Translations under genes and position numbers: made by a program
The notes under the pieces: model-generated
Databases searched by the model: none
Seen by the model: the letters and a program-made list of their open reading frames with translations, nothing else
What the model was told of the DNA's origin: nothing
Source: Candidatus Poribacteria bacterium
GTDB lineage: Bacteria > Poribacteria > WGA-4E > WGA-3G
Length of the DNA: 64,000 nucleotides
Direction of reading: 5' to 3'
Assembly: GCA_022822275.1 (NCBI GenBank)
Contig: JAJEBZ010000095.1
Coordinates: 14,036 to 78,035, forward strand
Shown: positions 36,192 to 63,223 of the stretch, one piece after another
Layout of the letters: every line of letters starts with the position of its first letter
How positions within the stretch are numbered: position 1 is the stretch's first letter

Positions 36192-38561
36192 CTAAATATC
36201 ATCCGTGTTTTGTGGTGGAAATAATTCAAGTTGTTTAGGTTCACTTGTCTTGTTCTTCTCAACTTTTGTCTGTTTTTGCGGGTCTTCCTTTTGTTTTTGC
36301 AGGGCTTGCAAAAGTAGCAGGAGTGCGGGGAATTCCTCAAGAGCATTTGCTGCATTTTGTTTTAACTCCTCATACTGCTTCCAACTATTGGCAAAATCAC
36401 CCTTATCAATATGTCTGTCCCAGAAATCTTCCGCATCCTTAAACGCGATATCCTCTAATGTTGAATTTTTAGGGAGTCGTCCAACATTTATTGTTGCAGC
36501 AGAACTCTCAAGAACAGCTGTAACGGGATCGTTATTAGAAAGTACCAGTTTCAGCCATAGGTTTTTCTGGTTAACTCTTTTTTTCGAACGTTTCAGTTCA
36601 TTGGTCACCTCTGTTAATAGTTTTTCACGTTCAAATAATGCTTTGGTGATATTCACTTGCACATTATCGTCAATCAGTATCCGAATTGCTGATTGAGTAT
36701 CTACGACAATAATGTGAGGAGTCGTTTTAAGTAGTGTATGCTTTCCAGCATGTCTAGCATCTTTTATAGCGGCCTCCATGGCAACTTCTATTGCCGGACA
36801 CACTTTTGTCTCAAATGGGTAGGTTTTCAAATTAACCTTTGAAAATAAAAGGTCAAGGTGCGGGAGCAAATTGCGAACACAATTATTGTTTTCATGAGTC
36901 AAAGCAATAGCACCAAGATATGGTAGTGGAAGGTGTTTATCTGGTACAATCTGCTGCCAAAGTTTCGCAATTACACGACGTGATATTTGCTGAAATAGCG
37001 TGAATTCCTGAGTGGTAACAGTAATACGGTTGAGTTCATTGCGAAAACGTCCGCCTATATCCAAAGGTGGTTGTTCAATTGCTTTCAATTCTTGATCATC
37101 TACAGCAAAGTGTGAAGCGGGAGCGAAAAAAGCAAAAGAACCGCGCAGTGATTTTCGAGTTTTGGATCCTGATCCTGGTGAGTTAATCACATATAAATGT
37201 GTTAATGGGGCAACATCTTCTTCAAAACCTATGAATTCCGTGTCAACAAACTTGCTTGAAAACAATCTTGTTTGAGCAGGAGGCAGTGTTGAAACAAAAG
37301 GTGTACCAGTCAAACGGCAGACTTTCTTATTTGGCGATTTTCTTATTTCAGAGAGCATTTCCGCAGGACGTTGGACAGCATCACTTAACGGGCGAAACAG
37401 ATCATTTTTAGGTGGGCGTTTGCCTAAGCGTCCGGGAACTTCACGCATTTCAATCTGGTTATCAAAAGCAGCTTTGAGATAATCAACACCATCTTTTTGT
37501 GTCAATACGTCAAAGTCCTGTTCAAGTCGATGACGGCTTCTATCAAGCGTCATTTCCTGAATCTCTTGAATCTTTTTAGGGAAGTCATCAGAATAGATTT
37601 GAGATTGCGGAACTGCAATTATTACTGTCCGATTGTCTTGATATACCACTAATAGTTCTGACAACGACACAGTGTTATCCAACATTTCATTCGGTAGCAG
37701 CGGTTTCCCTGTTAGATCTGCCGTAAATGTTGTCTCAAAAGATTCAGACTTGGATCCGGTAACAGGTGTGAGATGGCGCATGACAAAGGTTGTGCCATCC
37801 ATAACATGAAAATGTTTTCCAACTTTGTCCCAGATTTCAGAGTTCGTTGGCGGTGAGGAAAAAGTTATATTTGCCTTAGTATCAAATTTGAATTGGACTC
37901 GTTCAATTGGCACGCGTTCATCATCAATAAATGCCTGTTTTAATGCTTCGGCAACATCTTTTGTCACTACCTCAATAAAAGAATCAGCAATAACTGAGCG
38001 AGTTAACAAGGTAGGTAAAGCGGGTTGCATAGCAAGACTTAATTGAATATAATTTACTGTAGCACCGAGATTGACTTGGTCACTCTGATCTGAAAGTATA
38101 TTCGGTTCAAGGATTTGCAACCGCGGCAACCAATCTCCTGATGCATTTTTTACCCTAAAGTGATGTGTGCAGACTAAACCTTCGCGAATTCCTGTACGAT
38201 GGGCAAGGTTTTGTTCTGCCTGCTTAAAAACGCCGATTCCTGGAATATGATTCCAACGCAGTCCCCTTCCACCGTGATCCCAGTAGAAGGCAGGCTTGTA
38301 TAGATCATGCCAAAGCCACGCGACAAATTCCTCAACACTTGTTGAACCTACAAGTGCATTGAGCATAACATGGAGTGGAAGTGAGGCAAGATTAATGGTG
38401 TCGTGTGTGTCACCTGCTGAAGTTCTCGCTATAGGTCCAAAGTTGAATGATGGCACCCGAATGTTCCTTGTTAAATTTAATTGGTTGATAGTTGCGTTAA
38501 CAATTAGTTGTAAGAATATAGAACCAGTGTGATAATTCCGAATTATTTTAAAGTATACCAT
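36192..38561 (-). CDS. Large-subunit candidate of the Cascade-like module (Cas8/Csf1-like by position only).
   Basis: It is the first gene of the four-gene cluster and is followed 11 nt later by the small-subunit gene. I recognise no motif in its 789 aa. There is no Cas10 GGDD palm, no HD domain and no treble-clef zinc finger. Confidence 0.35.
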   Translation of the reverse strand: MVYFKIIRNYHTGSIFLQLIVNATINQLNLTRNIRVPSFNFGPIARTSAGDTHDTINLASLPLHVMLNALVGSTSVEEFVAWLWHDLYKPAFYWDHGGRGLRWNHIPGIGVFKQAEQNLAHRTGIREGLVCTHHFRVKNASGDWLPRLQILEPNILSDQSDQVNLGATVNYIQLSLAMQPALPTLLTRSVIADSFIEVVTKDVAEALKQAFIDDERVPIERVQFKFDTKANITFSSPPTNSEIWDKVGKHFHVMDGTTFVMRHLTPVTGSKSESFETTFTADLTGKPLLPNEMLDNTVSLSELLVVYQDNRTVIIAVPQSQIYSDDFPKKIQEIQEMTLDRSRHRLEQDFDVLTQKDGVDYLKAAFDNQIEMREVPGRLGKRPPKNDLFRPLSDAVQRPAEMLSEIRKSPNKKVCRLTGTPFVSTLPPAQTRLFSSKFVDTEFIGFEEDVAPLTHLYVINSPGSGSKTRKSLRGSFAFFAPASHFAVDDQELKAIEQPPLDIGGRFRNELNRITVTTQEFTLFQQISRRVIAKLWQQIVPDKHLPLPYLGAIALTHENNNCVRNLLPHLDLLFSKVNLKTYPFETKVCPAIEVAMEAAIKDARHAGKHTLLKTTPHIIVVDTQSAIRILIDDNVQVNITKALFEREKLLTEVTNELKRSKKRVNQKNLWLKLVLSNNDPVTAVLESSAATINVGRLPKNSTLEDIAFKDAEDFWDRHIDKGDFANSWKQYEELKQNAANALEEFPALLLLLQALQKQKEDPQKQTKVEKNKTSEPKQLELFPPQNTDDI

Positions 38562-38620: not shown

Positions 38621-39730
38621 TTACCCTGTCCTTACAAGAGACGTGAGTACCTCAATGAAACGTTCGTTCTGATTCGGTTTGCCGATGGTAACCCTGATTG
38701 CATTTGGGTATCCGTAATCTTTCATTTCTCGAACAATTATACCTTTTTTCATCATAGCTTCAGCCAGTTTTGCCCCAGATTGATTTACAAAAACCATGAT
38801 GAAGTTTCCTTCAGATTTTATATACCGTAACCCTAATTTGTCAAATGCGTTGTAAAGAAAGGATTTGCCTACTTCATTGAGTTCTTTACTTTTCTCAACA
38901 AAGTCAGTATCTTTAAGAGCTGCGCGTGCTGCTGCTTGCGCGACTGCGTTGCAGTTGAACGGTTGCCGAACAGCATTCATCGTGGAGATGATTGAGGCGG
39001 GGGCAATGCCATAACCAACACGCAATCCAGCGAGACCGTAGATTTTGGAAAAGGTACGTGTGATAATGAAGTTGCGTTCTTCCATCACATAAGGCAGTGT
39101 CTGTGGATAGTCGGGATGCGTGACATATTCGTAATACGCTTCGTCAAAGATGACTAAGACATTTTCTGGTACCATTGCCATGAATTGTGCAGTTTCAGGT
39201 GCGGTTACCATTGTGCCTGTCGGGTTATTTGGGTTAGCGATGAAGATAACTTTTGTTTTATCCGTGATGGCTGCTGCCATTGATGATAGATGGTGTGTGT
39301 CGTTTTGCATTGGCACGACAACGGGGGTAGCCCCCGTAATTTTTGCAACAAGACCATAGACGACAAATGCACCTTCCGAATAAATGACTTCGTCACCTGG
39401 ACCGAGGTAAGTATCACCAACGAGTGTCAACACTTCGTTAGAACCGTTAGTTAAGATCAGATGGTCTTCGGTTATGCCGAGATGTTTTGCTAAATCTGCC
39501 TTGAGATAATAGGCATTCCCATCGGGATAAAGGTTTATTTTTGTGGCAATCTCTTTCATTGCCAGTAAAGCTGATGGTGGAGCACCGAGTGGATTTTCGT
39601 TTGATGCCAATTTGATTATATTAGAGATACCGAGTTCGCGTTTGACCTCTTCAATCGGTTTTCCACCCTGATATGCCTTGATAGTTTCAATACCGGGTTT
39701 GGGGGTAAGTTTTTTCTTTGTTGTGTTCAC
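38621..39730 (-). CDS. hisC: Histidinol-phosphate aminotransferase.
   Basis: 'IKLASNENPLGAPPSAL' and 'YGLAGLRVGYGIA', together with the class-II aminotransferase PLP-Lys region 'FSKIYG', identify HisC. Confidence 0.85.
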   Translation of the reverse strand: MNTTKKKLTPKPGIETIKAYQGGKPIEEVKRELGISNIIKLASNENPLGAPPSALLAMKEIATKINLYPDGNAYYLKADLAKHLGITEDHLILTNGSNEVLTLVGDTYLGPGDEVIYSEGAFVVYGLVAKITGATPVVVPMQNDTHHLSSMAAAITDKTKVIFIANPNNPTGTMVTAPETAQFMAMVPENVLVIFDEAYYEYVTHPDYPQTLPYVMEERNFIITRTFSKIYGLAGLRVGYGIAPASIISTMNAVRQPFNCNAVAQAAARAALKDTDFVEKSKELNEVGKSFLYNAFDKLGLRYIKSEGNFIMVFVNQSGAKLAEAMMKKGIIVREMKDYGYPNAIRVTIGKPNQNERFIEVLTSLVRTG

Positions 39731-40985: not shown

Positions 40986-41422
40986 TTAAGTGAGATTGAT
41001 TATAAGTAGTAGACTCACGTTGTGTGCCTTAACAGATGTGTGGTATAGCGGAAACTGTTAGTTTGAGCAATACCACACAACTAATACCAACTTAACAGAA
41101 TTAATTTTATTTTTAGACGATGAATCACCGCTGAATGCGTGTAAGGTATTCGGCGGGTTCGCATACGCTCTATCCGACCTATAAACCAGATTGGATCGGT
41201 ATATTTTTGCTGTTCCTACCTACCAACATCTTATTAGTTTAACCAGAACTCGATTTTCTTAGGATAATGATGAAAAAAACAGATGAATTTCATTTTTTTT
41301 CCAAATTATGCACGTTTCCTACCCCAAATTTACGTCTTTAGATAATCAAATGATAAAAACAATCGTATCGTTTTAAACGATTTTCGTTCAATATCCGAAG
41401 AACTAACATTTGGAGGCAAAAG

Positions 41423-42727
41423 ATGATTAACAGAATTAAACATGCATTCGTAGTATTACTCGTTCTTGGCAATTTTTCTCTGGCACTTTCCGCACCACCA
41501 AAAGTAACCCGTTTTACGTTAAGTAACGGCATTAAGGTTGTCAATCTCTACGTTGAAGATTCCACAGATGTCATTATCTTGAGTTATTTACCCCTTGGAC
41601 TCGCCAATGATGGGAAAGCAAAGGCACAGTGGAGCCATCTGATTGAACACTTGATAATCCGAACCACAGGACCTATTGATTTCAAAACGAGTAGTGCAGA
41701 AACAATGGCAGATAACATGCGCTTGGAGTTTATCGGTAACACTGATAACTGGATGCAGGGCTTGGAACGACACGCAAAATGGCTTTCCGGATTATCATTT
41801 TCAGCAGAAAGTTTAGCTGAGGAGCTGCCGAGAGCTCTATCCGAGATTAAATTTACGGAAGCAAATTTGGGAACTCATAAGTGGGCTTTCGCAGCGTGGA
41901 ATCAAGTCTATCGGCATGGTGAAACCGATGTATCAATGCGTGGTGATGTTCAATCAGCAAAGTTAAGTGAACTACAAGAATATAGCAATCTACATTTAGT
42001 CCAAGCAGACCGCGTCCTTTTGTGTGTCATTGGCGGTGTTGATTCCAAAACGTTAAAAGGGACTATGGAAAAACAATTTGGCACTATCAAATTAACAGCG
42101 AAGACGTTTCCTAATCCAACAGCATCTCCAAACATGGCAAAAGACCAAAACGCCACTTGGGATGTCAATGTAACGCATTACATGGAAACCTACGCGATTC
42201 CTCGTCCTGAAAACGAAGACTATCCCGCATTGTATATAGCGAACATGCTCCTGAACTTAGTTTTCATGCAGGATACACAATTGAAGAAATTAACAGGGTA
42301 CGTTTTCTGTGGTGTTGACCTCATCACGCCCGAGCAGATATACTTATACGTCAGTGCCTCACTCAAGCCTGAAGTAGATATAGAAAAGGTTAAACAGCGG
42401 ATACGAGAGCTGGTGAACCCGTTGAAACAATCCGAAAATAACATACTGGTACCTATGTTTGCTCAATCTCTTTCAACAGAACTCAGCGCACCGCCGGATA
42501 TAACGATGGTAATGCAACAGATACCTGCAGGTGTGTCAACAGCCATAGCACTTGGTAACATTGGTCTGCGGTGGGGGATGCTTGAATATCAATATGGCGA
42601 TACTTTACCAAAGTTTGCAAACTTGCTTGCCAATGTCTCTCCAGCTGATGTTGCCGCTGTTGTCAAACGGTATTTAACCGAAGATAAGCGAATGACATTA
42701 GTTCTCACGCCGCGCGCGTTAAAGTGA
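41423..42727 (+). CDS. Secreted M16-family (insulinase/pitrilysin-like) peptidase.
   Basis: It has a signal peptide. 'AQWSHLIEHLIIRTTG' contains the inverted zinc-binding motif HxxEH, matching the M16 'GxAHxLEHMxFxGT' block. Confidence 0.6.
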   Translation: MINRIKHAFVVLLVLGNFSLALSAPPKVTRFTLSNGIKVVNLYVEDSTDVIILSYLPLGLANDGKAKAQWSHLIEHLIIRTTGPIDFKTSSAETMADNMRLEFIGNTDNWMQGLERHAKWLSGLSFSAESLAEELPRALSEIKFTEANLGTHKWAFAAWNQVYRHGETDVSMRGDVQSAKLSELQEYSNLHLVQADRVLLCVIGGVDSKTLKGTMEKQFGTIKLTAKTFPNPTASPNMAKDQNATWDVNVTHYMETYAIPRPENEDYPALYIANMLLNLVFMQDTQLKKLTGYVFCGVDLITPEQIYLYVSASLKPEVDIEKVKQRIRELVNPLKQSENNILVPMFAQSLSTELSAPPDITMVMQQIPAGVSTAIALGNIGLRWGMLEYQYGDTLPKFANLLANVSPADVAAVVKRYLTEDKRMTLVLTPRALK

Positions 42728-42782
42728 TATAAGAGTATTAGCAGAAATCCAGTCGTTGTGTGACTCATTACGGAGGATTCTG

Positions 42783-44975
42783 ATGGAAAAAGATGACGTT
42801 CAATTGATTCATAACATCTTGTCTGGCGACGATGAGGCGTTCGGTACCTTAGTTCAAAAATACCAAAAGAGTGTTCACGCCCTTGCATGGCGAAAGATCG
42901 GCGATTTTCATTATGCTGAAGAAATTACACAAGACACCTTCCTTCAGGCATATAGGAAACTTTCGACACTCAAGGATTACAATCAATTTGCTGGATGGCT
43001 ATATGTCATCGCCGATCGACTTTGCATTGATTGGATACGAAAGCGAAAACCAGTGTCGCAAGCGTTGGGAGACTCGTCTATGAAAGCGATAGATAAGTTA
43101 ACTTATGAACGTTATGTATTAGAACAACGTGAGATAGAAGCGACTGAATATCGCCAAGAAATCGTTAAGCGACTTCTGAAAAAACTACCAGAGAGCGAAC
43201 GCACAGTGGTGACGCTCTACTATCTCGGTGAAATGACGGCAAAAGAAATTGGCAAATTCTTGGGGGTGTCAGTGAACACTATTACGAGCCGACTCAAGCG
43301 AGCACGAGAACGTCTAAAAGCATCAGAAGAACTCTTGATTAACGATACACTTGGCGGTTTGCAATTGTCTACTAACCTAATGGAGAACATCATGCAGCAG
43401 GTTGCTGACATAGAACCGGTACCGTCTCCATCTGGAAAACCTTTTTTCCCATGGGTGGCTTTCAGTGCAGCCACGGTTTTGGTTATATTGCTGCTCGGTG
43501 TGAGTAATCAATATCTTACCAGATTTCAGAAACCGTATAGTTTTGAGGCACAGTCCGAACCCACTATTGAAATTATAGAGGCACTTACTATTCTTGATTC
43601 TGACGCAAAACCGGCTGTGCAAAGTCAAATTGGAAGGGTTGTCGATCTTGATAAAAGTAATAACAACGGATCACGGTCTTCTGAGGAAGCCTCACCACCT
43701 AATGCATCCGAGAACTTCCCTGTAATTACTGCCTCTAATGGTCCGCCTATAGTGACACGATTTACTTTAAGCAACGGTATCCGAGTTGTTAATCTCCATG
43801 TTGAAAACTCCAAGGATGTCGGTATTTTTAGCTATTTACCTCTTGGACTTGTCAATGATGGGAAAGCAAAGGCACAGTGGAGCAATCTAATTATGCGCCT
43901 ATCAGTCCGAACACCAGGACCCATTGACTACAACACAAGTAGTGCGGAGGCAATGGCTGATAATATGCGCTTGGAGTTTCGGGGGAATACGGATACATGG
44001 ACGCAGGGATTGGATCTCCATGCAAAATGGCTTTCTGGACTACCGTTCACAGCAGAAAGTCTCGCCAAAGCACTTCCGAATGCCTTGGCTGAGTTTGGCT
44101 ATCTTGAAAAGAACTTGGCAACGCATAAATTGGCACATGCAGCGTGGAATCAAGTTTTTCGGCATGGTGAAACCGATATAGTGATGCGCGAGGGCATTCG
44201 ATCGGTGCAACTGAGTCAGCTTCAGGAATATCGCGATCAGCATTTGGTCCAAGCAGGCCGCGTCCTTTTGTGTGTCATTGGTGGCGTTGATTCCGAAACG
44301 TTAAAAGATACTATGGAAAAACAACTGGGCACTATCAACTTACATGAGAAGACTCTTCCCCAGCCAACAGTGTCTCCAGATATAGCAAAAGACCAAACGG
44401 TTACTTGGGATATCAATGTAACGCATTATATAGAAGCCTACGCGATTCCTCGTCCTGAAAACGAAGACTATCCCGCACTCTATATCGCAAGTGTGCTTTT
44501 ACGGTTAGCATTCATACAGGATGTCCAATTAAAAAAAATAACAGGTCACGTTTACTGTGGGGTTGACCTCGTCACGCCTGAGCAAGTATACTTTTACATC
44601 AGTGCTTCACTCAAGCCAAACACAGATATAGAAAGAGTTAAGCAGCGGATGCGGCAGCTAATGAACCCCTTAAAGCAATCAGAGAACAACGCTCAGGTTT
44701 CTGTCCTTGCCCAGTCCCTCTCTACAGAACTCAGCGCGCCACCGGGTATGAAAACACTCATGCAGCAAAAACCGGAAAATATAACAGAGACTCACATGCT
44801 CCTCCAACTTGGAGTAAGTTGGGGCATAGTGGAATACCAATATGGTGAAACCATGCCACAACTTGCGAGTGCTTTTGCAGATGTCTCTGCAGATGATGTG
44901 GCAGATGTTGTCAAGAGGTATCTGACCAAAGATGAACGGATGACATTAGTTCTCACACCGCGGGCACATGAATAG
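42783..44975 (+). CDS. ECF sigma factor fused through a transmembrane helix to an extracytoplasmic pseudo-M16 domain.
   Basis: Residues 1-200 carry sigma70 region 2 ('WLYVIADRLCIDWIRKR') and region 4 ('LYYLGEMTAKEIGKFLGVSVNTITSRLKRARERL'). A transmembrane segment 'FPWVAFSAATVLVILLLGV' follows. The C-terminal 430 aa are paralogous to 41423..42727, but the HxxEH site reads 'SNLIMRL', so all three catalytic residues are substituted. The start at 42783 follows a GGAGG RBS. Confidence 0.65.
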   Translation: MEKDDVQLIHNILSGDDEAFGTLVQKYQKSVHALAWRKIGDFHYAEEITQDTFLQAYRKLSTLKDYNQFAGWLYVIADRLCIDWIRKRKPVSQALGDSSMKAIDKLTYERYVLEQREIEATEYRQEIVKRLLKKLPESERTVVTLYYLGEMTAKEIGKFLGVSVNTITSRLKRARERLKASEELLINDTLGGLQLSTNLMENIMQQVADIEPVPSPSGKPFFPWVAFSAATVLVILLLGVSNQYLTRFQKPYSFEAQSEPTIEIIEALTILDSDAKPAVQSQIGRVVDLDKSNNNGSRSSEEASPPNASENFPVITASNGPPIVTRFTLSNGIRVVNLHVENSKDVGIFSYLPLGLVNDGKAKAQWSNLIMRLSVRTPGPIDYNTSSAEAMADNMRLEFRGNTDTWTQGLDLHAKWLSGLPFTAESLAKALPNALAEFGYLEKNLATHKLAHAAWNQVFRHGETDIVMREGIRSVQLSQLQEYRDQHLVQAGRVLLCVIGGVDSETLKDTMEKQLGTINLHEKTLPQPTVSPDIAKDQTVTWDINVTHYIEAYAIPRPENEDYPALYIASVLLRLAFIQDVQLKKITGHVYCGVDLVTPEQVYFYISASLKPNTDIERVKQRMRQLMNPLKQSENNAQVSVLAQSLSTELSAPPGMKTLMQQKPENITETHMLLQLGVSWGIVEYQYGETMPQLASAFADVSADDVADVVKRYLTKDERMTLVLTPRAHE

Positions 44976-47646: not shown

Positions 47647-48681
47647 ATGTCAAACCAAATCATTCAACTCGGAGTAGTGGGATGTGGATGGGCAGGCTGC
47701 CAGGCTATCTATGCTGCCAATGCTACCTCTCGACTAAACGTTATCGCTATTGCAGAACGTGATCCAATCCGCCATGAACAGGCAGGAAACAACTACGCAG
47801 TACCGCATCGCTATGCTGACTATCAAGAACTCCTTGATAATCCGTCCGTTGATGCTGTTTACCTTGCCACTTCTCCAGATGGCAGACTTCAACAGGTATT
47901 GGATACGCTCAATGCAGGCAAACATGTCTTAGTTCAAAAACCGCATGCTATCCGTGCCCCTGAAATTTTAGAGATGGAAACAGCAGCACAACAGGCCGGC
48001 AAAACGCTCCAATTCTGTTATTTTATGCGTCACTTTCCGCACAACCGCCAAATTCGGCGTGCTGTCCTAAATGGGGCAATCGGAGAACCGTTTCATGCCC
48101 GCGTTTTTGGAAAATTCAATTCCATTCCAACCCTTGATGCCAACAGCCGATGGCTGCATGTATATGGACAAAAAGGCGGTTCATTAGGACAACACTATTC
48201 CCATGAACTCAATCTAACGTGGTGGTGGTTGGGATGTCCAAAACCTGAGTGGGCATTTGCATCAAAGCACGTGCTTTATCCACAGTACGATGGACCAGAG
48301 GGAGCAGCAGAGGACTATTTCACAGGTCTCCTCGGTTGTGAAGGTGGAAAAACTATCCAGATCGACTGTTCACGGATGAGTCATTCAGATTCTGGCAGTG
48401 TTGTGGAGCTTTATGGCACTACTGGCGCAATCACGAACGGCGGCATATCAAGATTTAAAGATGGCGAATTTGTCCGAGAAGCAATTGATGAACCTACTGA
48501 GATTGATCATGGGGAACTGCCTGAAGAGGTGCCTGTATTTTACTATGAACTCAATCATTTCGCTATGGCTATTGCAGGTGAAGTAGCACCAGATGTTGAC
48601 GCATCTAATGCTTATACCTTTATGCAGATATTGGATGCGCTTTATGATAGCGCAAAAAGTGACGAAAAGGTTTATATTTGA
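47647..48681 (+). CDS. Gfo/Idh/MocA-family NAD(P)-dependent oxidoreductase.
   Basis: 'LGVVGCGWAGCQAIYAA' is the Rossmann GxGxxG motif. 'EKPHA' is Gfo/Idh/MocA-like. Confidence 0.7.
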   Translation: MSNQIIQLGVVGCGWAGCQAIYAANATSRLNVIAIAERDPIRHEQAGNNYAVPHRYADYQELLDNPSVDAVYLATSPDGRLQQVLDTLNAGKHVLVQKPHAIRAPEILEMETAAQQAGKTLQFCYFMRHFPHNRQIRRAVLNGAIGEPFHARVFGKFNSIPTLDANSRWLHVYGQKGGSLGQHYSHELNLTWWWLGCPKPEWAFASKHVLYPQYDGPEGAAEDYFTGLLGCEGGKTIQIDCSRMSHSDSGSVVELYGTTGAITNGGISRFKDGEFVREAIDEPTEIDHGELPEEVPVFYYELNHFAMAIAGEVAPDVDASNAYTFMQILDALYDSAKSDEKVYI

Positions 48682-48747
48682 CAAAAACATATTCTTTTGA
48701 TAATCTAATAGCAAAACTGATATATTCCTAACTTAGGAGAAATTTCT

Positions 48748-49785
48748 ATGTATAAAAGTGCGATGTTGGGGTGCGGCGGCCGCGCAGGTGGCCATGCAAG
48801 TGCCTATCGCTTTGTTAAAGGTGGGAAACTCGCAGCGATCTGCGATATGAACGAAGAACGACTCAACAATTTCGGTGATAGATTTGAAATATCTTCTCGA
48901 TATACAGATTTAGACGAGATGCTTGAGAAGGAGAAGCCGGATCTGCTCCATATTGTGACTGCTCCTGTGCTACGCGGATCCAATGAACGGATTCGGTATT
49001 CGCTGATGAAACAGGCATCAGACCATGGTGTACCTGCTGCGATTGTAGAAAAGCCGATTGCAGTTGAAAGCGAAGATTGGAAACAGATTGCTGGGTTAGC
49101 AGAAGAAACCAAAACGAAGTTTGTTGTCAACACACAGTTGAATTTTCATCCCCAGAATCTTGAACTCAAGAGAGACGTGGCGGAAGGCAAAATTGGTGAG
49201 ATTAAGTTCATAGATGCAAGTGCTCGGAGCACGCCAGTGGATCAGGGACCACATGTTCTGCAGTTAGTTTCTTCCTATATTGATAATTCCAGACCTGTGA
49301 GTGTATTAGGACAGGTTTCAGGGAGAGAACATTTGGACTCAGCCCAACCTTCTCCTATGCATGCGGCGGCACAAGTTATTTATGAAAATGGACTTCATGT
49401 CTCTCTGGCATTTGGACAGGGTATGGGAACGATGGCATCCGATAACCAAGGCATTTATTGCCATAAACGCGTCTTTGTCATTGGAACAGAAGGTTTTGTG
49501 CATTGGCGTTTTAGCAGTTGGGAACGTTCTACACAAAAGGGCGGTTATGAAGGCGGTCCACTCAACTATGGTGAACAAGATGTTCAAGCACAAGGCAACC
49601 TCACTGAGGCAGTTTTTGATTGGCTTGATGATGAGAAAAACGAACATCCGACACACCTCAAACAGTCACTTGCAGAATTCAACCTTCTCTTAGGAATGTA
49701 CCACAGCGGTATAACGAATCAAATTATTGACCTTCCGTTTGATCCACCAGATGGGTTAATGGATTCACTAAGAGAGCAACTATAA
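48748..49785 (+). CDS. Gfo/Idh/MocA-like oxidoreductase, tandem paralog 1.
   Basis: 'MLGCGGRAGGHASAY...IVEKPIAVE' fits the family. It is about 80-85% identical at the protein level to the next two genes. Confidence 0.6.
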   Translation: MYKSAMLGCGGRAGGHASAYRFVKGGKLAAICDMNEERLNNFGDRFEISSRYTDLDEMLEKEKPDLLHIVTAPVLRGSNERIRYSLMKQASDHGVPAAIVEKPIAVESEDWKQIAGLAEETKTKFVVNTQLNFHPQNLELKRDVAEGKIGEIKFIDASARSTPVDQGPHVLQLVSSYIDNSRPVSVLGQVSGREHLDSAQPSPMHAAAQVIYENGLHVSLAFGQGMGTMASDNQGIYCHKRVFVIGTEGFVHWRFSSWERSTQKGGYEGGPLNYGEQDVQAQGNLTEAVFDWLDDEKNEHPTHLKQSLAEFNLLLGMYHSGITNQIIDLPFDPPDGLMDSLREQL

Positions 49786-49913
49786 ATCGGTTTTAGGTTT
49801 TTTTATGTAACGATTAGCGATAGCAGTGAATATGTTTGCTACTACCGCTAATTGTTATATACTGCAGAACATTGCTGTGTTCGTAGTACATAAATGTATA
49901 AGGGATTACTGTT

Positions 49914-50951
49914 ATGTATAAAAGTGCGATTTTAGGATGCGGAGGACGTGCCAAAGGTCATGCAGGTGCTTATCGGTTTGTTAAAGGTGGTCAACTCGCA
50001 GCGATCTGCGATATGAATGAAGAACGGCTCAATAATTTTGGTGATAGATTTGAGATTTCATCTCGGTATACAGATTTAGACGGGATGCTTGAGAAGGAAA
50101 AACCGGATCTCCTCCATATTGTCACTGCTCCGCTATTACGCGGTACGAACCAGCACATTCGGTATCCGTTAATGAAGCAAGCCTCAGACCACGGTGTACC
50201 TGCAGTAATTGTAGAAAAACCGATTGCTGTTGATAGCGATGACTGGAAGCAAATAGCTGGATTAGCAGAAGAAACAGAAACAAAATTTATTGTCAACACG
50301 CAACTCAACTTTCACCCCAAAAACCTTGAACTCAAAAAAGATGTCGTAGATGGTAGAATTGGTGAACTTAAGTTCATTGATGCCAGTGCACGCAGTACAC
50401 CTGTAAATCAAGGGCCACACGTACTTCAATTAGTATCTTCTTACGTTGATAACTCTCGCCCTGAGAAAGTCCTTGGGCAAATCTCTGGAAGAGAGAGTTT
50501 GGATTCAGCAGAACCTTCACCAATGCATGCTGCAGCACAGGTTCTATATGATAATGGGTTACATGTCTCCATTGCTTTTGGACCGGAAATGGGGGCGAAA
50601 GTATCAGAAAGACCTGCAAGATTTAGACATAAACGTGTCTTTGTTGTTGGAACGAAAGGTTTTGTACATTGGGGTTTTAGCATGTGGGAACGTTCTACAC
50701 TTGAAAGTGGTTACGAAAGCGGTCCACTCAACTACGGCGATCAAGATGTTCAAGCACAAGGAAACCTTACGGAGGCAGTTTTTGATTGGCTTGATGATGA
50801 GAGTAAAGAACATCCGACACATCTCAAACAATCGCTGGCAGAGTTCAACCTCCTTTTGGGAATTTACTACAGTGGTATTACGAATGAGATTATTGACCTT
50901 CCGTTTGAACCCCCTGACAGCTTAATTGATTTACTTAAGGAAAAATTATAA
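49914..50951 (+). CDS. Gfo/Idh/MocA-like oxidoreductase, tandem paralog 2.
   Basis: It is 345 aa and co-linear with paralogs 1 and 3. Confidence 0.6.
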   Translation: MYKSAILGCGGRAKGHAGAYRFVKGGQLAAICDMNEERLNNFGDRFEISSRYTDLDGMLEKEKPDLLHIVTAPLLRGTNQHIRYPLMKQASDHGVPAVIVEKPIAVDSDDWKQIAGLAEETETKFIVNTQLNFHPKNLELKKDVVDGRIGELKFIDASARSTPVNQGPHVLQLVSSYVDNSRPEKVLGQISGRESLDSAEPSPMHAAAQVLYDNGLHVSIAFGPEMGAKVSERPARFRHKRVFVVGTKGFVHWGFSMWERSTLESGYESGPLNYGDQDVQAQGNLTEAVFDWLDDESKEHPTHLKQSLAEFNLLLGIYYSGITNEIIDLPFEPPDSLIDLLKEKL

Positions 50952-51088
50952 ATTCAGTCTCTAATTTGTCAGATAGAAAGTTTAACGGTAGATGCAAACA
51001 TATATTCAATTCTGCTAAATAAGTATGAATTGTAAACTTGCGAATAATAGTATTGTAATGATAATAATAAGTATAAGGAGATAATTTT

Positions 51089-52126
51089 ATGTATAAGAGT
51101 GCATTTTTAGGTTGTGGTGGTCGTGCCCGCGCACATGCAAGCGCGTACCGCTTTGTCAAAGGTGGGAAAATCGGAGCGATCTGTGACATGAACGAAGACC
51201 TTCTAAACAGTTTCGGTGAACAATTTGATGTCTCTTCCCGATATACAGATTTAGATGAAATGCTTGAAAAGGAGAAACCCGACCTACTCCACATTGTAAC
51301 TGCACCTGTGTTACGTGGAACCAATCAACGTATCCGTTATCCATTGATGAAGCAAGCCTCTGATCATGGCGTACCGATGGCAATTGTAGAGAAACCGATC
51401 GCTGTTGAAAGCGAAGACTGGAAAGAGATCGCTGGATTAGCAGAGGAGACAAAAACAAGGTTTATTGTCAACACACAACTAAACTTTCACCCAAAAAACC
51501 TTGAATTAAAACAGGATGTAGCAGAAGGTAAAATTGGTGAAATTAAGTTTATTGATGCCAGTGCCCGGAGTACACCTGTTGACCAAGCCCCACATGTGCT
51601 GCAGTTGGTATCGTCTTACATAGACAATTCACGTCCGGTGCGAGTGTTAGGGCAAATTGCTGGAAAAGAGCAGTTGGATTCAGCACAGCCGTCTCCGATG
51701 CACGCTGCGGGGCAGGCAATATACGAAAACGGTCTCCATGTTTCTCTCGCATTTGGAACAGGAATGGGAACTTTGGCATCAGAACGTGGGGGCAATACCG
51801 CACATAAACGCGTTTTTGTTGTCGGTACTGATGGATTTGTACACTGGCGATTCAGTAGTTGGGAACGGTCAACACGAGAGGGCGGTTACGAAGGTGGGCC
51901 GCTTAATTATGGTGAACAGGATATCCAAGCACAGGGCAATCTGACTGAGGCAGCTTTTGAATGGCTTGATGATGAGAAAAACGAACATCCGACACATCTT
52001 AAACAATCGCTTGCTGAGTTTAACTTGCTTTTAGGTATTTACTACAGTGGCATAACTAACCAGATTATAGATCTACCGTTCGACCCACCAGACGGGTTAA
52101 TGGATAGTCTTAGAGAGCAACTGTAA
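51089..52126 (+). CDS. Gfo/Idh/MocA-like oxidoreductase, tandem paralog 3.
   Basis: It is 345 aa and co-linear with paralogs 1 and 2. Confidence 0.6.
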   Translation: MYKSAFLGCGGRARAHASAYRFVKGGKIGAICDMNEDLLNSFGEQFDVSSRYTDLDEMLEKEKPDLLHIVTAPVLRGTNQRIRYPLMKQASDHGVPMAIVEKPIAVESEDWKEIAGLAEETKTRFIVNTQLNFHPKNLELKQDVAEGKIGEIKFIDASARSTPVDQAPHVLQLVSSYIDNSRPVRVLGQIAGKEQLDSAQPSPMHAAGQAIYENGLHVSLAFGTGMGTLASERGGNTAHKRVFVVGTDGFVHWRFSSWERSTREGGYEGGPLNYGEQDIQAQGNLTEAAFEWLDDEKNEHPTHLKQSLAEFNLLLGIYYSGITNQIIDLPFDPPDGLMDSLREQL

Positions 52127-52321: not shown

Positions 52322-54991
52322 GTGAACTTTCAAATTAGAAACAGGTTTTTGTTCTTCATGTTTACGCTGTCTATGTGTCTAAATTCTATTTTCCTAATGA
52401 ACACTGCTGCACAAGTCGGTGATGAACCTGTTGGCATATCTGCCAACTATACTTATGAGACGATTGATGTTCCGGGTGTAGACTTTTTAGCGGTGACAGC
52501 AAGTAGCGACTTTGAGGACTACGCCGGCAACACCCCAAGTGCCGATGGTGAAAAAATGGTCGCCTTTACGCTCATTGATGGTGTTTTTGAGACCCACGAT
52601 TTCCCCGGCTCGAAAAACACCTATTTCTACGCACTCGGTAACAATGGACTCGCTGCGGGGCACTACGAGGATAGCAAAGGTCTTTTCCACGGTGTCATCT
52701 TAGAGAATGGTGAGTTGCGGCAATACGATTTTCCAGGTGCCGTCCAAACGGAGATCTATGGATATAGCGATTCAACCGGGGTACTGACGGGTAATTTTAT
52801 AGATGCTTCCGGTGTTCGCCGTGGATTCTCAGGAGATGAAATAATTGAGTATCCCGGGGCAACGGAAACTTATGCCGATTTTGTGAGCACGCTTGGCAAT
52901 GTCGTGGGCAGCTATGTAGATACTGAAGACACATATCATGCATACCTGCGTGGCCCAGGAGGTAGCTTTGCAACGCTTGACCTTCCACTCAAAGGAGAGT
53001 TGGACTACTTTTTTCTCCACGGTATTAACAGTGCCCTGATTGCCGTCGGCCGAGCCAAAACCGTGGGTGATGTCCCACGCACCTATGCCGGCAACCCCGT
53101 AGCCTTACAAGAACTGAAGTTTCCGGGCAGCGTCAGCACGGAAGGTTGGAATGTTAATCAGGACAACTCTATCGTGGGACATTATGACTCTGCGGATGGA
53201 CGTAGACACGGGTTTATCGCCAGACCGAAAGAGGGTACTCCACAAGCACGACCCGGTGTTGTACCTCCTAACCTCAACTATACTTTTGAGAGTATTAATG
53301 TGCCTGGTGTAGATTTTTTAGCGGTAACTGCCAGTAGTGACTTTGAAGATTACGCCGGCAACATGCGGACTGCTGATGATGAAAAAGATGTTGCCTTTAC
53401 ACTCATTGATGGCGTTTTTACGACTTATGATTTCCCCGACTCGCAGGGCACCTATTTCTATGCACTCGGGAACGATGGAAAAGCTGCCGGACACTACCAA
53501 GATAGTGATGGACTGTACCACGGTGTTATCTTAGAGAATGGCGAATTGCGGCGATACGATTTTCCAGGTGCCGTTCAAACAGAGATATACGGTCTTAGTG
53601 ATGCGACGGGGGCTCTAACGGGTAGTTATATAGATGCTTCTGGTGTTCGCCGCGGGTTCTCTGGGGATACAATAGTCGAAAAATCCGGGGCATCCGCAAC
53701 TTATGCCGATTTTGTGAGCTGGACAGGCCATATCGTGGGTAGCTATGTGGATGCTGAAGGGGTATATCATGCATACATGCGTAGTTCGGTGGGTAGATTT
53801 CTATCTATTGACCTTCCAAACGCAACAAATCTGGAATACTTTTTTCTCCACGGCCTCAACAATGCAAGGGCTGTCGTTGGTCGAGCCAAAGCGGCGGGTG
53901 ATGTCCCACGTACTTATGTCGGCAGCCCCCTCAACCTGCAGGAATTGCAGTTCCCGGGTGCTGTTAGCACGGAGGGCTGGAATATTAATCAGGATGGCTC
54001 CGTCGTCGGACACTACGACTCAGCGGATGGACGCAGACACGGATTTGTCGCCAGACTCGTCGCCAAGGAAGAGAGTGATCATTTTGGAAACATCTTCAAC
54101 GTTACGCTAACGAAAGGTTTAAACATGCTTTCTTTGCCTTTAGCATCACCAAAACCGATGACCGCAAAATCACTTGCGGGGATTACTGGCGCGACAGTTG
54201 TTATAGCACTTGACGCTGAAAATCAACGGTTCATTGGTTGGACACCAGATGCACCTAACGATGGATTTCCCATTGATGGCGGACAAGGATATATCGTCAA
54301 TGTACCACAAACACGCAATTTTGCCTTCGTTGGATCACGCTGGACAAATCAAACGGAGATTGCTGCAGCACCACCTGCTATATCCCAGACAAAGGAAACA
54401 TGGGCTTTCGTGGTAAGTGGACACTTACATGGCAAACCAACGTTTGACGGTTACAAAGTCATCGTCCGCAACCTGAGAACAAAAAGTACCATAACTACCT
54501 CGGTGCAAGGTGATTACTTCGCTGCTGCAACTGCTGACTTAGCAAGACGAAGTGTTGTCAAAGTTGGAGATGTGATTGAAGCACGCGTCATCGGACCGGA
54601 CGGTAACGTTGAATCCCAAACCCTCAATATTAAAGTGACCCCTGAGAACTTGGCTAATGCACTATTATCTGTCAAGTTTGATAGCATCGGTAAACCGCTG
54701 CAGAACAAGTTGTTGCAAAACTATCCGAATCCATTTAACCCTGAGACGTGGATTCCATATCAACTCGCGCAAGACAGTTCTGTATCGGTATCCATTTATG
54801 ATTCAACCGGTAAGGTGATACGTAAACTATCAATTGGTAATCAATCTGCAGGTTTCTATAATAGTCGGGAACGTGCTGCTTATTGGGATGGCAAGAATGC
54901 TTTAGGAGAAAGTGTTGCGAGTGGTGTCTATTTTTACCAGTTGACAACACCCTCCTTCCAGCAAACACGGCGGCTCGTCATTCTAAAGTAG
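52322..54991 (+). CDS. Giant secreted repeat protein with a T9SS-type C-terminal sorting domain, paralog 1.
   Basis: It has a GTG start and a signal peptide. Two tandem modules of about 280 aa are built from '(D/Y)FPGA.QTEIYG.SD.TG.LTG...GVRRGF' and 'SVSTEGWNINQDGS.VGHYDSADGRRHGF' units. The C-terminus 'LLQNYPNPFNPETWIPYQL...SIYD..GK.IR.L..G....G.Y...R.A.YWDG.N..GE.VASGVYFYQLTTP' is a type-A Por/T9SS sorting tail. Confidence 0.7.
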   Translation: MNFQIRNRFLFFMFTLSMCLNSIFLMNTAAQVGDEPVGISANYTYETIDVPGVDFLAVTASSDFEDYAGNTPSADGEKMVAFTLIDGVFETHDFPGSKNTYFYALGNNGLAAGHYEDSKGLFHGVILENGELRQYDFPGAVQTEIYGYSDSTGVLTGNFIDASGVRRGFSGDEIIEYPGATETYADFVSTLGNVVGSYVDTEDTYHAYLRGPGGSFATLDLPLKGELDYFFLHGINSALIAVGRAKTVGDVPRTYAGNPVALQELKFPGSVSTEGWNVNQDNSIVGHYDSADGRRHGFIARPKEGTPQARPGVVPPNLNYTFESINVPGVDFLAVTASSDFEDYAGNMRTADDEKDVAFTLIDGVFTTYDFPDSQGTYFYALGNDGKAAGHYQDSDGLYHGVILENGELRRYDFPGAVQTEIYGLSDATGALTGSYIDASGVRRGFSGDTIVEKSGASATYADFVSWTGHIVGSYVDAEGVYHAYMRSSVGRFLSIDLPNATNLEYFFLHGLNNARAVVGRAKAAGDVPRTYVGSPLNLQELQFPGAVSTEGWNINQDGSVVGHYDSADGRRHGFVARLVAKEESDHFGNIFNVTLTKGLNMLSLPLASPKPMTAKSLAGITGATVVIALDAENQRFIGWTPDAPNDGFPIDGGQGYIVNVPQTRNFAFVGSRWTNQTEIAAAPPAISQTKETWAFVVSGHLHGKPTFDGYKVIVRNLRTKSTITTSVQGDYFAAATADLARRSVVKVGDVIEARVIGPDGNVESQTLNIKVTPENLANALLSVKFDSIGKPLQNKLLQNYPNPFNPETWIPYQLAQDSSVSVSIYDSTGKVIRKLSIGNQSAGFYNSRERAAYWDGKNALGESVASGVYFYQLTTPSFQQTRRLVILK

Positions 54992-55015
54992 AGTCAACCC
55001 ATATCAAACTAACAA

Positions 55016-55050
55016 GTGTCACAGTTGCGCCATCGGTGTAACTGTGACAC
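55016..55050 (+). terminator. Conserved stem-loop downstream of repeat-protein paralog 1.
   Basis: The stem 'GTGTCACAGTT' pairs with 'AACTGTGACAC' across a 13-nt loop. Near-identical hairpins follow paralog 2 (58526-58559) and paralog 3 (61346-61382). There is no clear U-tract. Confidence 0.4.
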
Positions 55051-55836
55051 CGTTAAGTCTAAGAATCCATTTAATACAAATTTAACGAGTTGTGCTAAAT
55101 AACTAATGGCAATAATATCATTCACATAAGAAGGATTAATTTTCGTTATTTCACTTATGTTGACACCTTCTTTAGTCCCGTAGGCAGAGGCATTCAATCC
55201 TGTAAGAATACATTCCAACAATAGATTTCCAATAGATTGGACATGATTTCTATTGTTCTCAAAACAAAAAACACAACAAACCCACACCACTATCAGGTAT
55301 AATATAACCCGGACACCCAAATAGAATCCAAACTTTTGGTCTTGCTCAAAAAAGGATCACTAAAATGACCGATAGACAAATCAAAAAACACAAAACAAAA
55401 AACGATAAAAAACCCATTTAGTTGTTTTTTTCAAAATTTCGCAAATTCATAAAACCTTCATAAACCCATACCATAACACGATCGAGAACACTTATGAAAA
55501 AAATGCAAAAAACACGAAAAAAACAACTAAAATATTCCACGATTAGGACAAGGTTCACAACCAGATGCATTCAATTGTCGATTAATCACACACGCTAACA
55601 TTATGATTCTTCTGTAGTTCGGGAAAATCACGAAAATAGGTGAAATTTTTCTTGCGTTTTTCTGGAAAATGTTACATAATTTTAAAAATACTAAAAAGAA
55701 AAGAAACCGAATTTTCAATTTAATCACATGTCTGAACACAAACTTGCCAAGTCTTAACTATAAACATCATCTCTCAAGATAAGTTATCCAATATAGATTC
55801 TTGATCCTTGAAGGAAAACTAAGGAGAAATTTCATT

Positions 55837-58500: not shown

Positions 58501-58667
58501 GGGCAATCCGTATAGAATGCACAAGTGTCACAGTTATGCTGTCGGTGTAACTGTGACACTCCTTAAGCACAAAAAACACAAAAAAACAAAAATGTTTGAA
58601 AACTCCATTAAAACGTTCAAAATTCATTAGTAGGAACTTAGATTCCCTTAAAGTAAGGTTTTTTATT

Positions 58668-61325: not shown

Positions 61326-61408
61326 AGTCCGTATAGAATGCACAAGTGTGACAGTTATGCTATCGGTGTATAACTGTCACACGCCGTTAAACCAAAAAAA
61401 GGATAATC

Positions 61409-63223
61409 ATGGATCATAAAATAAAAACGAAACTTCCCTTGTTGATATGTCTAATTATCTGTTTCATAGGATATGCAGTCGCACAAGTTAATGCTGAAAC
61501 ACCGATTGCAGATTACATCTTTGAAACGATTGAAGTGCCGGGTGTAGATTTTCTGGAGGTGGCTGCAAGTAACGACTTCGGAGACTACGCAGGCAATACC
61601 CGTAACATTGATGGCACAAAAACCATCGGATTCACATTGATTGACGGTGTTTTTAAAACTTATGACTTCCCAGGATCCCTAAATACCTATTTCTATGCCC
61701 TTGATAATGCCGGAAAAGCTGCAGGACATTACAAAGGACAAGATGAACTTTATCACGGTGTTATCATGGAAAATGGAGAACTCACGCAATACGATTTTCC
61801 CGGCGCAGCCCAAACTCTCATCTACGGTATTAGTGATGAAACGGGAGCACTGAGCGGTAATGTCGTTGATGAAGCAGGTGTCAGCCGCGCCTTCTCAGGG
61901 GAGTTGTCATTTATGTTCCCCGGAGCAGTAGCAACTTATGGGGACTTTGTCAACGCCGCAGGTGCTGTCGTCGGCAGCTACAGGGATGCCGACGGGATCC
62001 CCCATGGATTCATACGTCACCCAGACGGCAGTTTCACCACTATAGACCTCCCAGAAATGCCGAATCTTGAATTTCTATTTGTGAACACCATCACTGATGC
62101 CGGTGTTATAGGCTTCAGAGCCAAAGCTGCAAACGATATTCTGCGGTCCTATATCCTTCTGCCCAGTGGTATCCTCCATGAAGTGCGACTCCCAGGCAGT
62201 GTTATCACTGTCGTCCGAAATGTTAATCAGGATGGAAGTATTATCGGTTATTACGACACAACGGACGGGCGGAGATACGGATTCATCGGTAGCCCTAACA
62301 CACAACCAAACGGAGAAGATTACGGCAGGACTTTCTCCATGCACCTCTCTAAAGGTTTGAATATGCTGTCTGTGCCGTTGAAACCGACTGTCCACATGAC
62401 AGCCCGGTCGCTTGCTGTAAAGACAGGCGCGACAGTTGTAATAGCACTCAATGCTGCCAATCAACGTTTTATAGGTTGGACACCGAGTGCACCCGACAAC
62501 GGATTTCCCATAGAAGGTGCTAAAGGGTACATCGTCAATTTACCAAGGGCACGCGACGTTGTCTTCACTGGGGTGGGATGGACAAATCAAGCAGCACCAA
62601 CTTCAACGCCAATCGCAATGCCACGCGAAACGTGGGCATTTGTCGTGAGTGGGCAGTTGGCAGGTAAACAGAAGTTTGACGGCTATCAAATTACAGTTCA
62701 AAACTTGCGGAAAAACACCATTATGACAGCACAAGTGCGTAATAATTACTTCGCTGCTGCCACAGCAGACCTCAGCTATCGCAGTGTTGTTGAAGCAGGT
62801 GACAAAATAGAAATAACCGTTACTGATACAAGTGGAAATGTTGTGTCGGAAAAATTCAATTTCACGGTAAATGCGACACATCTTGAAAACGCTGTAATGA
62901 ATGTGAAACTTGACGGTATCGGTTCCCCGAAACGGAGCCAACTTCTGCAGAATTATCCGAACCCGTTTAACCCTGAAACATGGATTCCGTATCATCTTGC
63001 AGAAGCGGGGGTTGTGTCCCTATCTATTTATGACGCTGCAGGTAAACTTGTCCGAACATTTTCGCTTGGACACAAACCGGCAGGTTTCTATCAGAATCGA
63101 GAGAACGCTGTTTATTGGGACGGACGAAATGCGTTGGGAGAGACAGTTGCAAGCGGTGTCTATTTCTATCAACTGACAACGCCAACATTCCATCAGACCA
63201 AACGGATGATCATTCTGAAATAA
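61409..63223 (+). CDS. Secreted repeat protein with a T9SS-type C-terminal domain, paralog 4 (single-module version).
   Basis: At 604 aa it has one N-terminal module instead of two. The central and C-terminal domains match the other three paralogs. Confidence 0.7.
   Translation: MDHKIKTKLPLLICLIICFIGYAVAQVNAETPIADYIFETIEVPGVDFLEVAASNDFGDYAGNTRNIDGTKTIGFTLIDGVFKTYDFPGSLNTYFYALDNAGKAAGHYKGQDELYHGVIMENGELTQYDFPGAAQTLIYGISDETGALSGNVVDEAGVSRAFSGELSFMFPGAVATYGDFVNAAGAVVGSYRDADGIPHGFIRHPDGSFTTIDLPEMPNLEFLFVNTITDAGVIGFRAKAANDILRSYILLPSGILHEVRLPGSVITVVRNVNQDGSIIGYYDTTDGRRYGFIGSPNTQPNGEDYGRTFSMHLSKGLNMLSVPLKPTVHMTARSLAVKTGATVVIALNAANQRFIGWTPSAPDNGFPIEGAKGYIVNLPRARDVVFTGVGWTNQAAPTSTPIAMPRETWAFVVSGQLAGKQKFDGYQITVQNLRKNTIMTAQVRNNYFAAATADLSYRSVVEAGDKIEITVTDTSGNVVSEKFNFTVNATHLENAVMNVKLDGIGSPKRSQLLQNYPNPFNPETWIPYHLAEAGVVSLSIYDAAGKLVRTFSLGHKPAGFYQNRENAVYWDGRNALGETVASGVYFYQLTTPTFHQTKRMIILK

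Follow-up and report, generated by a model that had tools for sequence, protein, structure and literature searches.

Two adjacent genes on the forward strand of a 64,000-nucleotide (nt) stretch of a Candidatus Poribacteria genome (contig JAJEBZ010000095.1, positions 14,036 to 78,035; hereafter the window) encode a secreted M16B-type zinc peptidase (gene A) and a protein in which an extracytoplasmic function (ECF) sigma factor, one membrane helix and a dead copy of the same peptidase are joined in a single polypeptide (gene B). We propose, with a probability of roughly 0.45, that B is a transmembrane signalling sigma factor made of one polypeptide, with a dead M16B sensor that would act as a ligand trap, and that it would control an autoregulated A-B operon. 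ECF sigma factors with membrane-spanning C-terminal extensions have been predicted in several phyla and almost none of them is understood. The present locus is unusually readable because the gene from which the sensor originated, A, is still adjacent. The class of residues that separates enzyme from sensor can be identified and appears to be kept by selection in the face of continuing gene conversion, a candidate for the target promoter is at hand, and paralogs with other sensors provide built-in comparisons. The features of the two genes are the following (aa, amino acids; pLDDT, predicted local distance difference test score).

41423-42727, forward strand: gene A, 434 aa, secreted M16B-type zinc peptidase with intact HxxEH (list of open reading frames, Pfam, fold).
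About aa 1-24 of A, forward strand: predicted signal peptide, a hydrophobic N-terminal segment plus an ALSA motif.
41636-41650, forward strand: HLIEH of A (aa 72-76), zinc-binding/catalytic motif, aligned to HMLEH of PDB 5euf.
41822-41824, forward strand: E134 of A, supporting Glu, from the ExxxxxxE alignment with 5euf.
41843-41845, forward strand: E141 of A, third zinc ligand, from the same alignment.
42772-42776, forward strand: GGAGG ribosome-binding site of B, read from the sequence.
42783-44975, forward strand: gene B, 730 aa, ECF sigma factor, membrane helix and dead M16B domain.
42849-43316, forward strand: sigma region 2 (aa 23-89) to region 4 (aa 126-178), from Pfam and NCBIfam, nearly identical among paralogs.
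43323-43442, forward strand: cytoplasmic linker (aa 181-220), about 40 aa, conserved among paralogs.
43443-43502, forward strand: single transmembrane helix (aa ~221-240) by hydropathy; the AlphaFold model predicts a helix at 229-244.
43503-43631, forward strand: extracytoplasmic juxtamembrane segment (aa 241-283), which includes RFQKPYSFEAQSEPTIEI, from paralog conservation.
43632-43730, forward strand: variable low-complexity linker (aa 284-316), pLDDT <50; homology to the paralog module stops at about aa 301-322.
43731-44972, forward strand: catalytically dead M16B domain (aa 317-730), corresponding to mature A from its signal-peptide cleavage site on.
43884-43898, forward strand: NLIMR (aa 368-372), at the position of HLIEH in the A/B alignment.

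Gene B starts with the ATG at 42783, seven bases after the GGAGG, and the same methionine starts its orthologs. Pfam recovered Sigma70_r2 (3.7e-14), Sigma70_r4_2 (5.8e-15) and, at aa 475-633, Peptidase_M16_C (1.1e-11), with no match to sigma region 3 or region 1. The NCBIfam model TIGR02937 (sigma70-ECF) scored 95.6 bits for a cutoff of 42.9. With regions 2 and 4 present and the ECF profile above its cutoff, B is an ECF (group 4) sigma-70 factor; the best NCBIfam equivalog for its sigma part was of the SigW type, at 120 bits under a cutoff of 209. Hydropathy gave one hydrophobic segment, at about aa 221-240, and the part that follows has an M16B fold in Foldseek searches, which bears out the sigma-helix-M16 fusion proposed in an initial annotation made from the DNA letters. 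The extracytoplasmic domain announced there at 430 aa is present, with a length of about 414 aa. The N-in/C-out topology of B was assigned on the basis of the sigma function and of the signal peptides of the free paralogs, and the juxtamembrane segment is a candidate processing or interaction site.

From aa 21 to aa 432, A could be aligned to aa 317-728 of B over 412 aa without a gap and with 69% identity, SHLIEHL in A facing SNLIMRL in B; the dead domain is thus a paralog of the upstream secreted protein, as had been suspected. Pfam and NCBIfam returned only M16_C for A and no named family, and M16 membership was set by PDB sequence and fold searches. PF05193 (Peptidase_M16_C) passed in both proteins (33.3 and 45.4 bits for a threshold of 23). 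PF00675 (Peptidase_M16, the N-terminal model) matched neither A nor B, and the N-terminal half of the domain was recognised only via 5euf and the fold. A matched PDB 5euf, an M16 protease of H. pylori, over aa 26-338 with an E-value of 9.4e-11. In Foldseek, the AlphaFold models of A and B matched M16B subunits with E-values of 1e-18 to 1e-13 and TM(target) up to 0.67, among them 5euf, Sphingomonas 3ami/3amj, 3eoq, 4nnz, 7v4y, 3hdi and PA0372, as well as TTHA1264/1265, BH2405, MPP and the bc1 core proteins. These matches include solved active/inactive heterodimers (3amj, 4nnz, which is PA0371-PA0372, 7v4y and MPP) and substrate complexes (MPP beta-E73Q, 1hr8; FusC E83A, 6b05). The M16 part of the B model was mostly at pLDDT 75-95. 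The models thus indicate a single M16B subunit of two domains in A and likewise in the B domain, both of a divergent family. A carries both HxxEH and the distal Glu (ExxxxxxE) that characterise M16B enzymes, and the alignment with 5euf, the fold and the invariance of HxxEH in 69/69 free orthologs dispose of the possibility that this motif was a chance match. Orthologs of A carry the name 'insulinase family protein'. In many Poribacteria genomes, A is a 684-aa form (e.g., P0275, in the L016 region) that is longer by a C-terminal domain of about 250 aa with a weak LolA_like match (E 6.5e-4, below threshold), the A of the window being the short 434-aa form.

Uninterrupted orthologs of B of about 730 aa were recovered in at least 120 clusters (90% identity), complete chromosomes included, and their source organisms are Candidatus Poribacteria, symbionts of sponges. 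The A-B pair is syntenic in at least 18 genomes, with AP_endonuc_2 upstream and luciferase-like, periplasmic binding protein and GFO/IDH/MocA genes downstream. We compared the active sites of 69 free and 120 fused copies. The catalytic Glu (E75) was present in 69/69 free copies and in 0/120 fused copies, which had N (101) or M (19) instead. Both zinc-binding His were likewise invariant in the free copies (H72 and H76, 69/69 each) and retained in 94/120 and 74/120 fused copies, respectively. The third zinc ligand (E141) was E in 69/69 free copies and Q in 88/120 fused ones, and the supporting Glu (E134) was E in 68/69 and A in 63/120. The five sites read HEHEE in 68/69 free orthologs. HLINH is the commonest fused state, and the clade of the window is further altered, to NLIMR. 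Other conserved residues (E93, R100, E146, H152, W159, N160, R164) were retained in free and fused copies alike. Median ratios of nonsynonymous to synonymous substitution (dN/dS) were 0.17 for A and 0.18 for the dead domain; the sigma domain had 0.10. The near equality of the first two values indicates that B is a maintained pseudoenzyme and no decaying copy, and the loss of the zinc site in B, already read from the window, is thus a general state under purifying selection.

Within a genome, A and the B domain are on average 69% identical, which rivals the identity between distant orthologs (69% for A-A and 65% for B-B between the window and L022). A neighbor-joining tree of fused and free M16-like domains did not yield two clean clades; poor resolution was rejected as the cause in favour of gene conversion, which we traced by pairwise and sliding-window DNA analysis. 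In one orthologous locus (L008), an identical A/B run of 119 nt lies within about 300 nt at 96-100% identity, the flanks being at about 75%, and a similar tract was found in L009. The window has a stretch at 90% with an identical run of 41 nt; at 81% identity, chance would by our own estimate be expected to give runs of at most about 26 nt. These patterns indicate that A and B exchange sequence by gene conversion while the difference at the active site persists. Three columns alone, one of them E75, fully separated A from B among 18 genomes, and E75 only did so in larger sets. The conversion tracts seen, which are few, begin just downstream of E141, and this fits selection against conversion of the active site.

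A scan of Poribacteria metagenome-assembled genomes yielded 327 relatives, of which 80 loci were kept, 24 orthologs and 56 paralogs that share only the first part of B. These 56 loci match B from residue 1 onwards with 55-67% identity; the matches end at about 301-381, mostly near 322. The shared module, the first ~311 residues of B and common to at least 56 paralogs, comprises sigma regions 2 and 4, the 40-aa linker, the helix and some 60 residues on the periplasmic side, RFQKPYSFEAQSEPTIEI among them; its periplasmic part is about as conserved across paralogs as the DNA-binding regions 2 and 4. Behind the module, the paralogs carry BNR/Sortilin propellers, LRR, LRR plus GHL15, Kelch or unknown domains, and a chromosome can hold several of them (e.g., L031, L047, L080 and L083 on OY764016.1). 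B is thus, to judge from these alignments, one member of a large and undescribed family of one-protein signalling sigma factors. The sharing of one transducer module by many paralogs with other sensors argues for a family-wide activation mechanism independent of A.

Homology to mature A takes over in B at the end of the module, at the signal-peptide cleavage site of A, and the module appears in effect to have taken the place of the signal peptide in a secreted protein that had been duplicated. A junction at the mature N-terminus recurs in L033 (3992-8763), where a sigma-TM-LRR-GHL15 fusion is followed by a secreted LRR-GHL15-dockerin paralog. A near-full-length paralog was adjacent in 6 of 55 paralog loci (L033, L038, L045, L046, L054, L059), and 6 further of the 55 had shorter or repeat-only adjacent matches. 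The tethered and free(-dockerin) members of the LRR-GHL15 pairs are 40-48% identical, in a design like that of the M16 pair.

Upstream of A we found a putative ECF-type promoter, with the following parts.

41293-41341, forward strand: ECF-type promoter motif, about 85-130 nt 5' of the A start, putative promoter.
41293-41300, forward strand: T-tract of the motif, read from the sequence.
About 41305-41317, forward strand: ATTATGCACGTTT of the motif, read from the sequence.
41333-41341, forward strand: CGTCTTTAG of the motif, read from the sequence.

CGTC is typical of the -10 element of ECF promoters, and the motif has a -10 element of this type. The family motif, TTTTTTT-cAgATTATGCAcGTTTT-N8-AAAATTaCGTCTTTA, was derived from 8-mer enrichment upstream of paralog genes. 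A pattern with a variable gap matched the window at 41309-41338; one with fixed spacing missed this site. A second match, at 45522, was rejected as a target, being inside the luciferase-like gene, without a T-tract and conserved only as coding sequence. The motif is almost invariant upstream of A in orthologous loci and, in those that have lost A, stands upstream of B. Of 53 paralog sigma genes, 26 are likewise preceded by it, and in L042, L044 and L053 it is found before a small gene for a secreted protein that lies upstream of the sigma fusion. No terminator-like site was seen in the 55-nt gap between A and B, and the A-B operon is likely autoregulated. Cross-recognition of the motif by the whole paralog family is plausible, since the paralogs hardly differ in sigma regions 2 and 4. 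A motif scan of metagenomes returned 8 contigs only, with one possible regulon member (L089) and one decayed ortholog locus (L091), which is too little for a regulon. In L089, the motif and T-tract (1754-1785, forward strand) precede a gene for a 328-aa secreted PD40/TolB-like protein, with no sigma fusion within 13.8 kb, and this gene is possibly an unlinked regulon member.

The M16-like subfamily to which A belongs, recognised by the motif WSHLxEHLxIRST, comprises 453 representatives at 50% identity. Most members are secreted, measure about 430-450 aa and carry HxxEH, and nearly all full-length representatives keep this motif. Independent fusions to ECF sigma factors with about six helices were recovered (P0122 in L002/L003, P0130, P0133, P0354-P0363), whose sigma part is 24-30% identical to that of B and which have no neighbouring paralog; these multi-pass fusions lie next to tig-clpP-clpX. 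Others are fusions to Ser/Thr kinases (P0187; P0226, from Planctomycetota), to a 10-helix protein (P0141) and to a 3-keto-disaccharide-hydrolase (P0210). The multi-pass ECF and kinase fusions come from Planctomycetota-type metagenomes. These alignments suggest that the subfamily was recruited repeatedly as an extracytoplasmic signalling domain, and that only Poribacteria divide the role between an active copy that is free and a dead one that is tethered.

We thus suggest the following mechanism. The linker, the helix and the juxtamembrane module of B would keep its sigma domain on the inner side of the membrane. The dead domain would bind the ligands of A, short peptides and possibly A itself, without cleaving them, because it keeps the fold and nearly all conserved residues and has lost the catalytic Glu and part of the zinc ligands. 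It would thus be a natural equivalent of the E-to-Q and E-to-A substrate traps made in the laboratory (1hr8, 6b05). Occupancy would be passed on through the transducer module shared by the family, most likely by regulated proteolysis in the juxtamembrane segment followed by intramembrane cleavage, as in the sigma/anti-sigma hybrid IutY. The freed sigma domain would act on the motif upstream of A, both A and B would rise, and A would then degrade the ligand. The M16 domain itself cannot be the anti-sigma domain that the initial annotation had considered, since it lies across the membrane from the sigma domain, which makes direct binding impossible.

Several observations weigh against this proposal. 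The clade of the window, with NLIMR, has lost both zinc-binding His as well, and its binding of peptides may be weakened. Pfam detected no anti-sigma domain in B (no match to FecR, zf-HC2 or RskA), and a class I anti-sigma domain would not fit the cytoplasmic linker, which has only about 40 aa. The positive-inside rule is not clearly obeyed, the net charge being -1 on the N-side and +1 on the C-side of the helix. The AlphaFold models of A and B are moderate (mean pLDDT ~65), and that of full-length B is uninformative on the packing of sigma domain and linker (pLDDT <50), hence on intramolecular inhibition. The fused M16-like domains outside Poribacteria all keep HxxEH, and catalytic death is therefore not required for sensing in general. 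Finally, the motif could bind another regulator instead of the sigma domain of B.

The same retention of HxxEH in fused domains outside Poribacteria, which would suit a mechanism that uses protease activity in cis, also speaks for a serious rival, put forward in the initial annotation, which we nevertheless consider somewhat unlikely. Secreted A would pair obligately with the dead domain of B in an active/inactive M16B clam-shell at the membrane, or would act in trans as a site-1 protease that cuts the linker (aa 284-316) or the juxtamembrane segment and releases the sigma domain. M16B enzymes act as dimers, and the closest folds include the active/inactive pairs 3amj, 4nnz, 7v4y and MPP. A and B are probably co-transcribed, across the 55-nt gap with its ribosome-binding site, and the likeness maintained by gene conversion would preserve an interface. 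For cleavage in trans, the linker of B is unstructured in the model, as are the substrates taken by M16 enzymes. However, in four orthologous loci (L005, L007, L011 and L014) no A was found within 4 kb upstream, with remnants of 23-24 aa only in L005 and L011, while B is intact and still lacks the catalytic Glu. Because at least 4 orthologous loci have lost the adjacent A and kept B, A is dispensable in cis and is no obligatory cis-encoded partner of B. The LRR, Kelch and propeller paralogs moreover share the module without an M16 partner, pointing to a release that does not depend on A. We prefer the trap model to one that depends on A on these two grounds, the module common to paralogs without M16 domains and the dispensability of A in cis.

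We regard as clearly improbable that B is active while still tethered, in a ToxR/CadC-like manner, with periplasmic dimerisation by a ligand or partner activating the membrane-bound sigma domain. M16B folds do dimerise, the helix and juxtamembrane module could be an element for dimerisation and not a cleavage site, and the failure of Pfam to detect an anti-sigma domain in B would fit such a protein. However, IutY, the only hybrid of this kind with a characterised activation in PMC8999054, is released by proteolysis, the data on truncated SCO4117 point to processing (PMC8999054), and literature searches found no precedent for a sigma factor active at the membrane. That the fusion is a non-functional accident or an artefact of assembly or annotation is effectively refuted: the zinc site does decay stepwise (HLINH, HLINY, QLINH, NLIMR) and the locus is decayed in L012 and L091, but the at least 120 uninterrupted clusters, a dN/dS in the dead domain equal to that of the active paralog, and the conserved promoter motif and ribosome-binding site all contradict it.

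The closest known system is IutY of Pseudomonas putida (ECF243), which is released by Prc and RseP (PMC8999054, PMC5411451). Like B, it is a single polypeptide with an N-terminal ECF sigma factor, one membrane helix and a periplasmic C-terminal domain, and it is part of an autoregulated signalling unit. Unlike B, in which Pfam found neither a FecR nor an anti-sigma match and thus not the cytoplasmic anti-sigma plus FecR domain by which the IutY type (ECF243) is recognised, IutY has a FecR-type anti-sigma/periplasmic domain and works with a TonB-dependent receptor. The sensor of B is an M16B pseudoenzyme, and for the sigma domain the highest scores came from SigW-type models, whose cutoffs they did not reach. 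Other ECF cores with a membrane-spanning extension are ECF48, ECF52 and ECF53 of Actinobacteria, e.g., SCO4117 (PMC8999054), and Planctomycetes ECFs have duplicated cores with diverse, unrelated C-terminal extensions (PMC8999054; Pinto and da Fonseca, 2020, PMC7671368; PMC7826278). B resembles these groups in its ECF core, helix and large extracytoplasmic extension, and its family resembles them in the duplication of cores with unrelated C-termini. The zinc-finger anti-sigma element of ECF52 is absent from B. In contrast to these groups, the conserved unit in Poribacteria runs through the helix into about 60 periplasmic residues, and gene A, from which the sensor derives, remains its neighbour and apparently still recombines with it.

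A and B also recall the M16B pairs, MPP alpha/beta, Sph2681/2682 of Sphingomonas, PA0371/PA0372 and TTHA1264/1265, which share the two-domain fold of about 410 aa and have adjacent genes for one partner with HxxEH and the distal Glu and one dead partner. They differ in that B carries its dead domain covalently linked to a sigma factor and in that A and B are 69% identical with gene conversion, whereas alpha and beta subunits diverged anciently. In the BlaR1/BlaZ system, the extracellular domain of the membrane sensor is homologous to the induced enzyme and binds the same ligand without turnover, and BlaR1 signals via a cytoplasmic zinc protease domain of its own, together with a separate repressor. 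The sensor is an enzyme homolog in both systems, the difference being the sigma factor fused to it in B. Our literature searches found no M16B pseudoenzyme as an extension of a sigma factor and no such pairing or gene conversion with an adjacent active enzyme. They likewise found no paper on Poribacteria ECFs or on the Poribacteria module family and its promoter.

The function proposed for B provides a testable model of the way in which a pseudoenzyme can turn into a receptor and a sigma factor can do its own signalling across the membrane. We tentatively extend it to a possible modular array of transmembrane sigma factors in Poribacteria, with one module and promoter specificity and swappable sensors (LRR, Kelch, BNR-propeller, GHL15, M16B), in which the enzyme-like sensors would be dead copies of co-transcribed secreted enzymes. 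If so, gene conversion would match the sensor to the enzyme while selection pins the catalytic difference, and A and B would form a peptide-sensing circuit of an enzyme and a pseudoenzyme receptor, which may read peptides of the sponge host or of competitors. The family suggests that uncultivated sponge symbionts have a signalling repertoire still to be explored, in which 'eukaryote-like' LRR and Kelch domains are apparently wired directly to transcription.

Two loci related to A-B are degraded. In L012 (4001-6951), the locus is rearranged and decayed, with a fragment of A (aa 242-432) within the fusion region. In L091 (4918-6027), the promoter motif, a 201-aa membrane open reading frame (ORF) and the last 130 aa of B remain.

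Elsewhere in the window, a 789-aa ORF on the reverse strand (36192-38561) has no Pfam match at E <= 0.001, and the adjoining 369-aa ORF (38621-39730, reverse strand) looks, by eye only, like a histidinol-phosphate aminotransferase. Four tandem large ORFs of 889, 899, 909 and 604 aa lie at 52322-63223 on the forward strand; each ends in FlgD_ig and Por_Secre_tail (sorting by the type IX secretion system, T9SS), the remainder having no confident Pfam match. Downstream of the periplasmic binding protein gene, four tandem ORFs of 344-345 aa (47647-52126, forward strand) have syntenic counterparts in L001 with GFO/IDH/MocA domains in the precomputed annotation.

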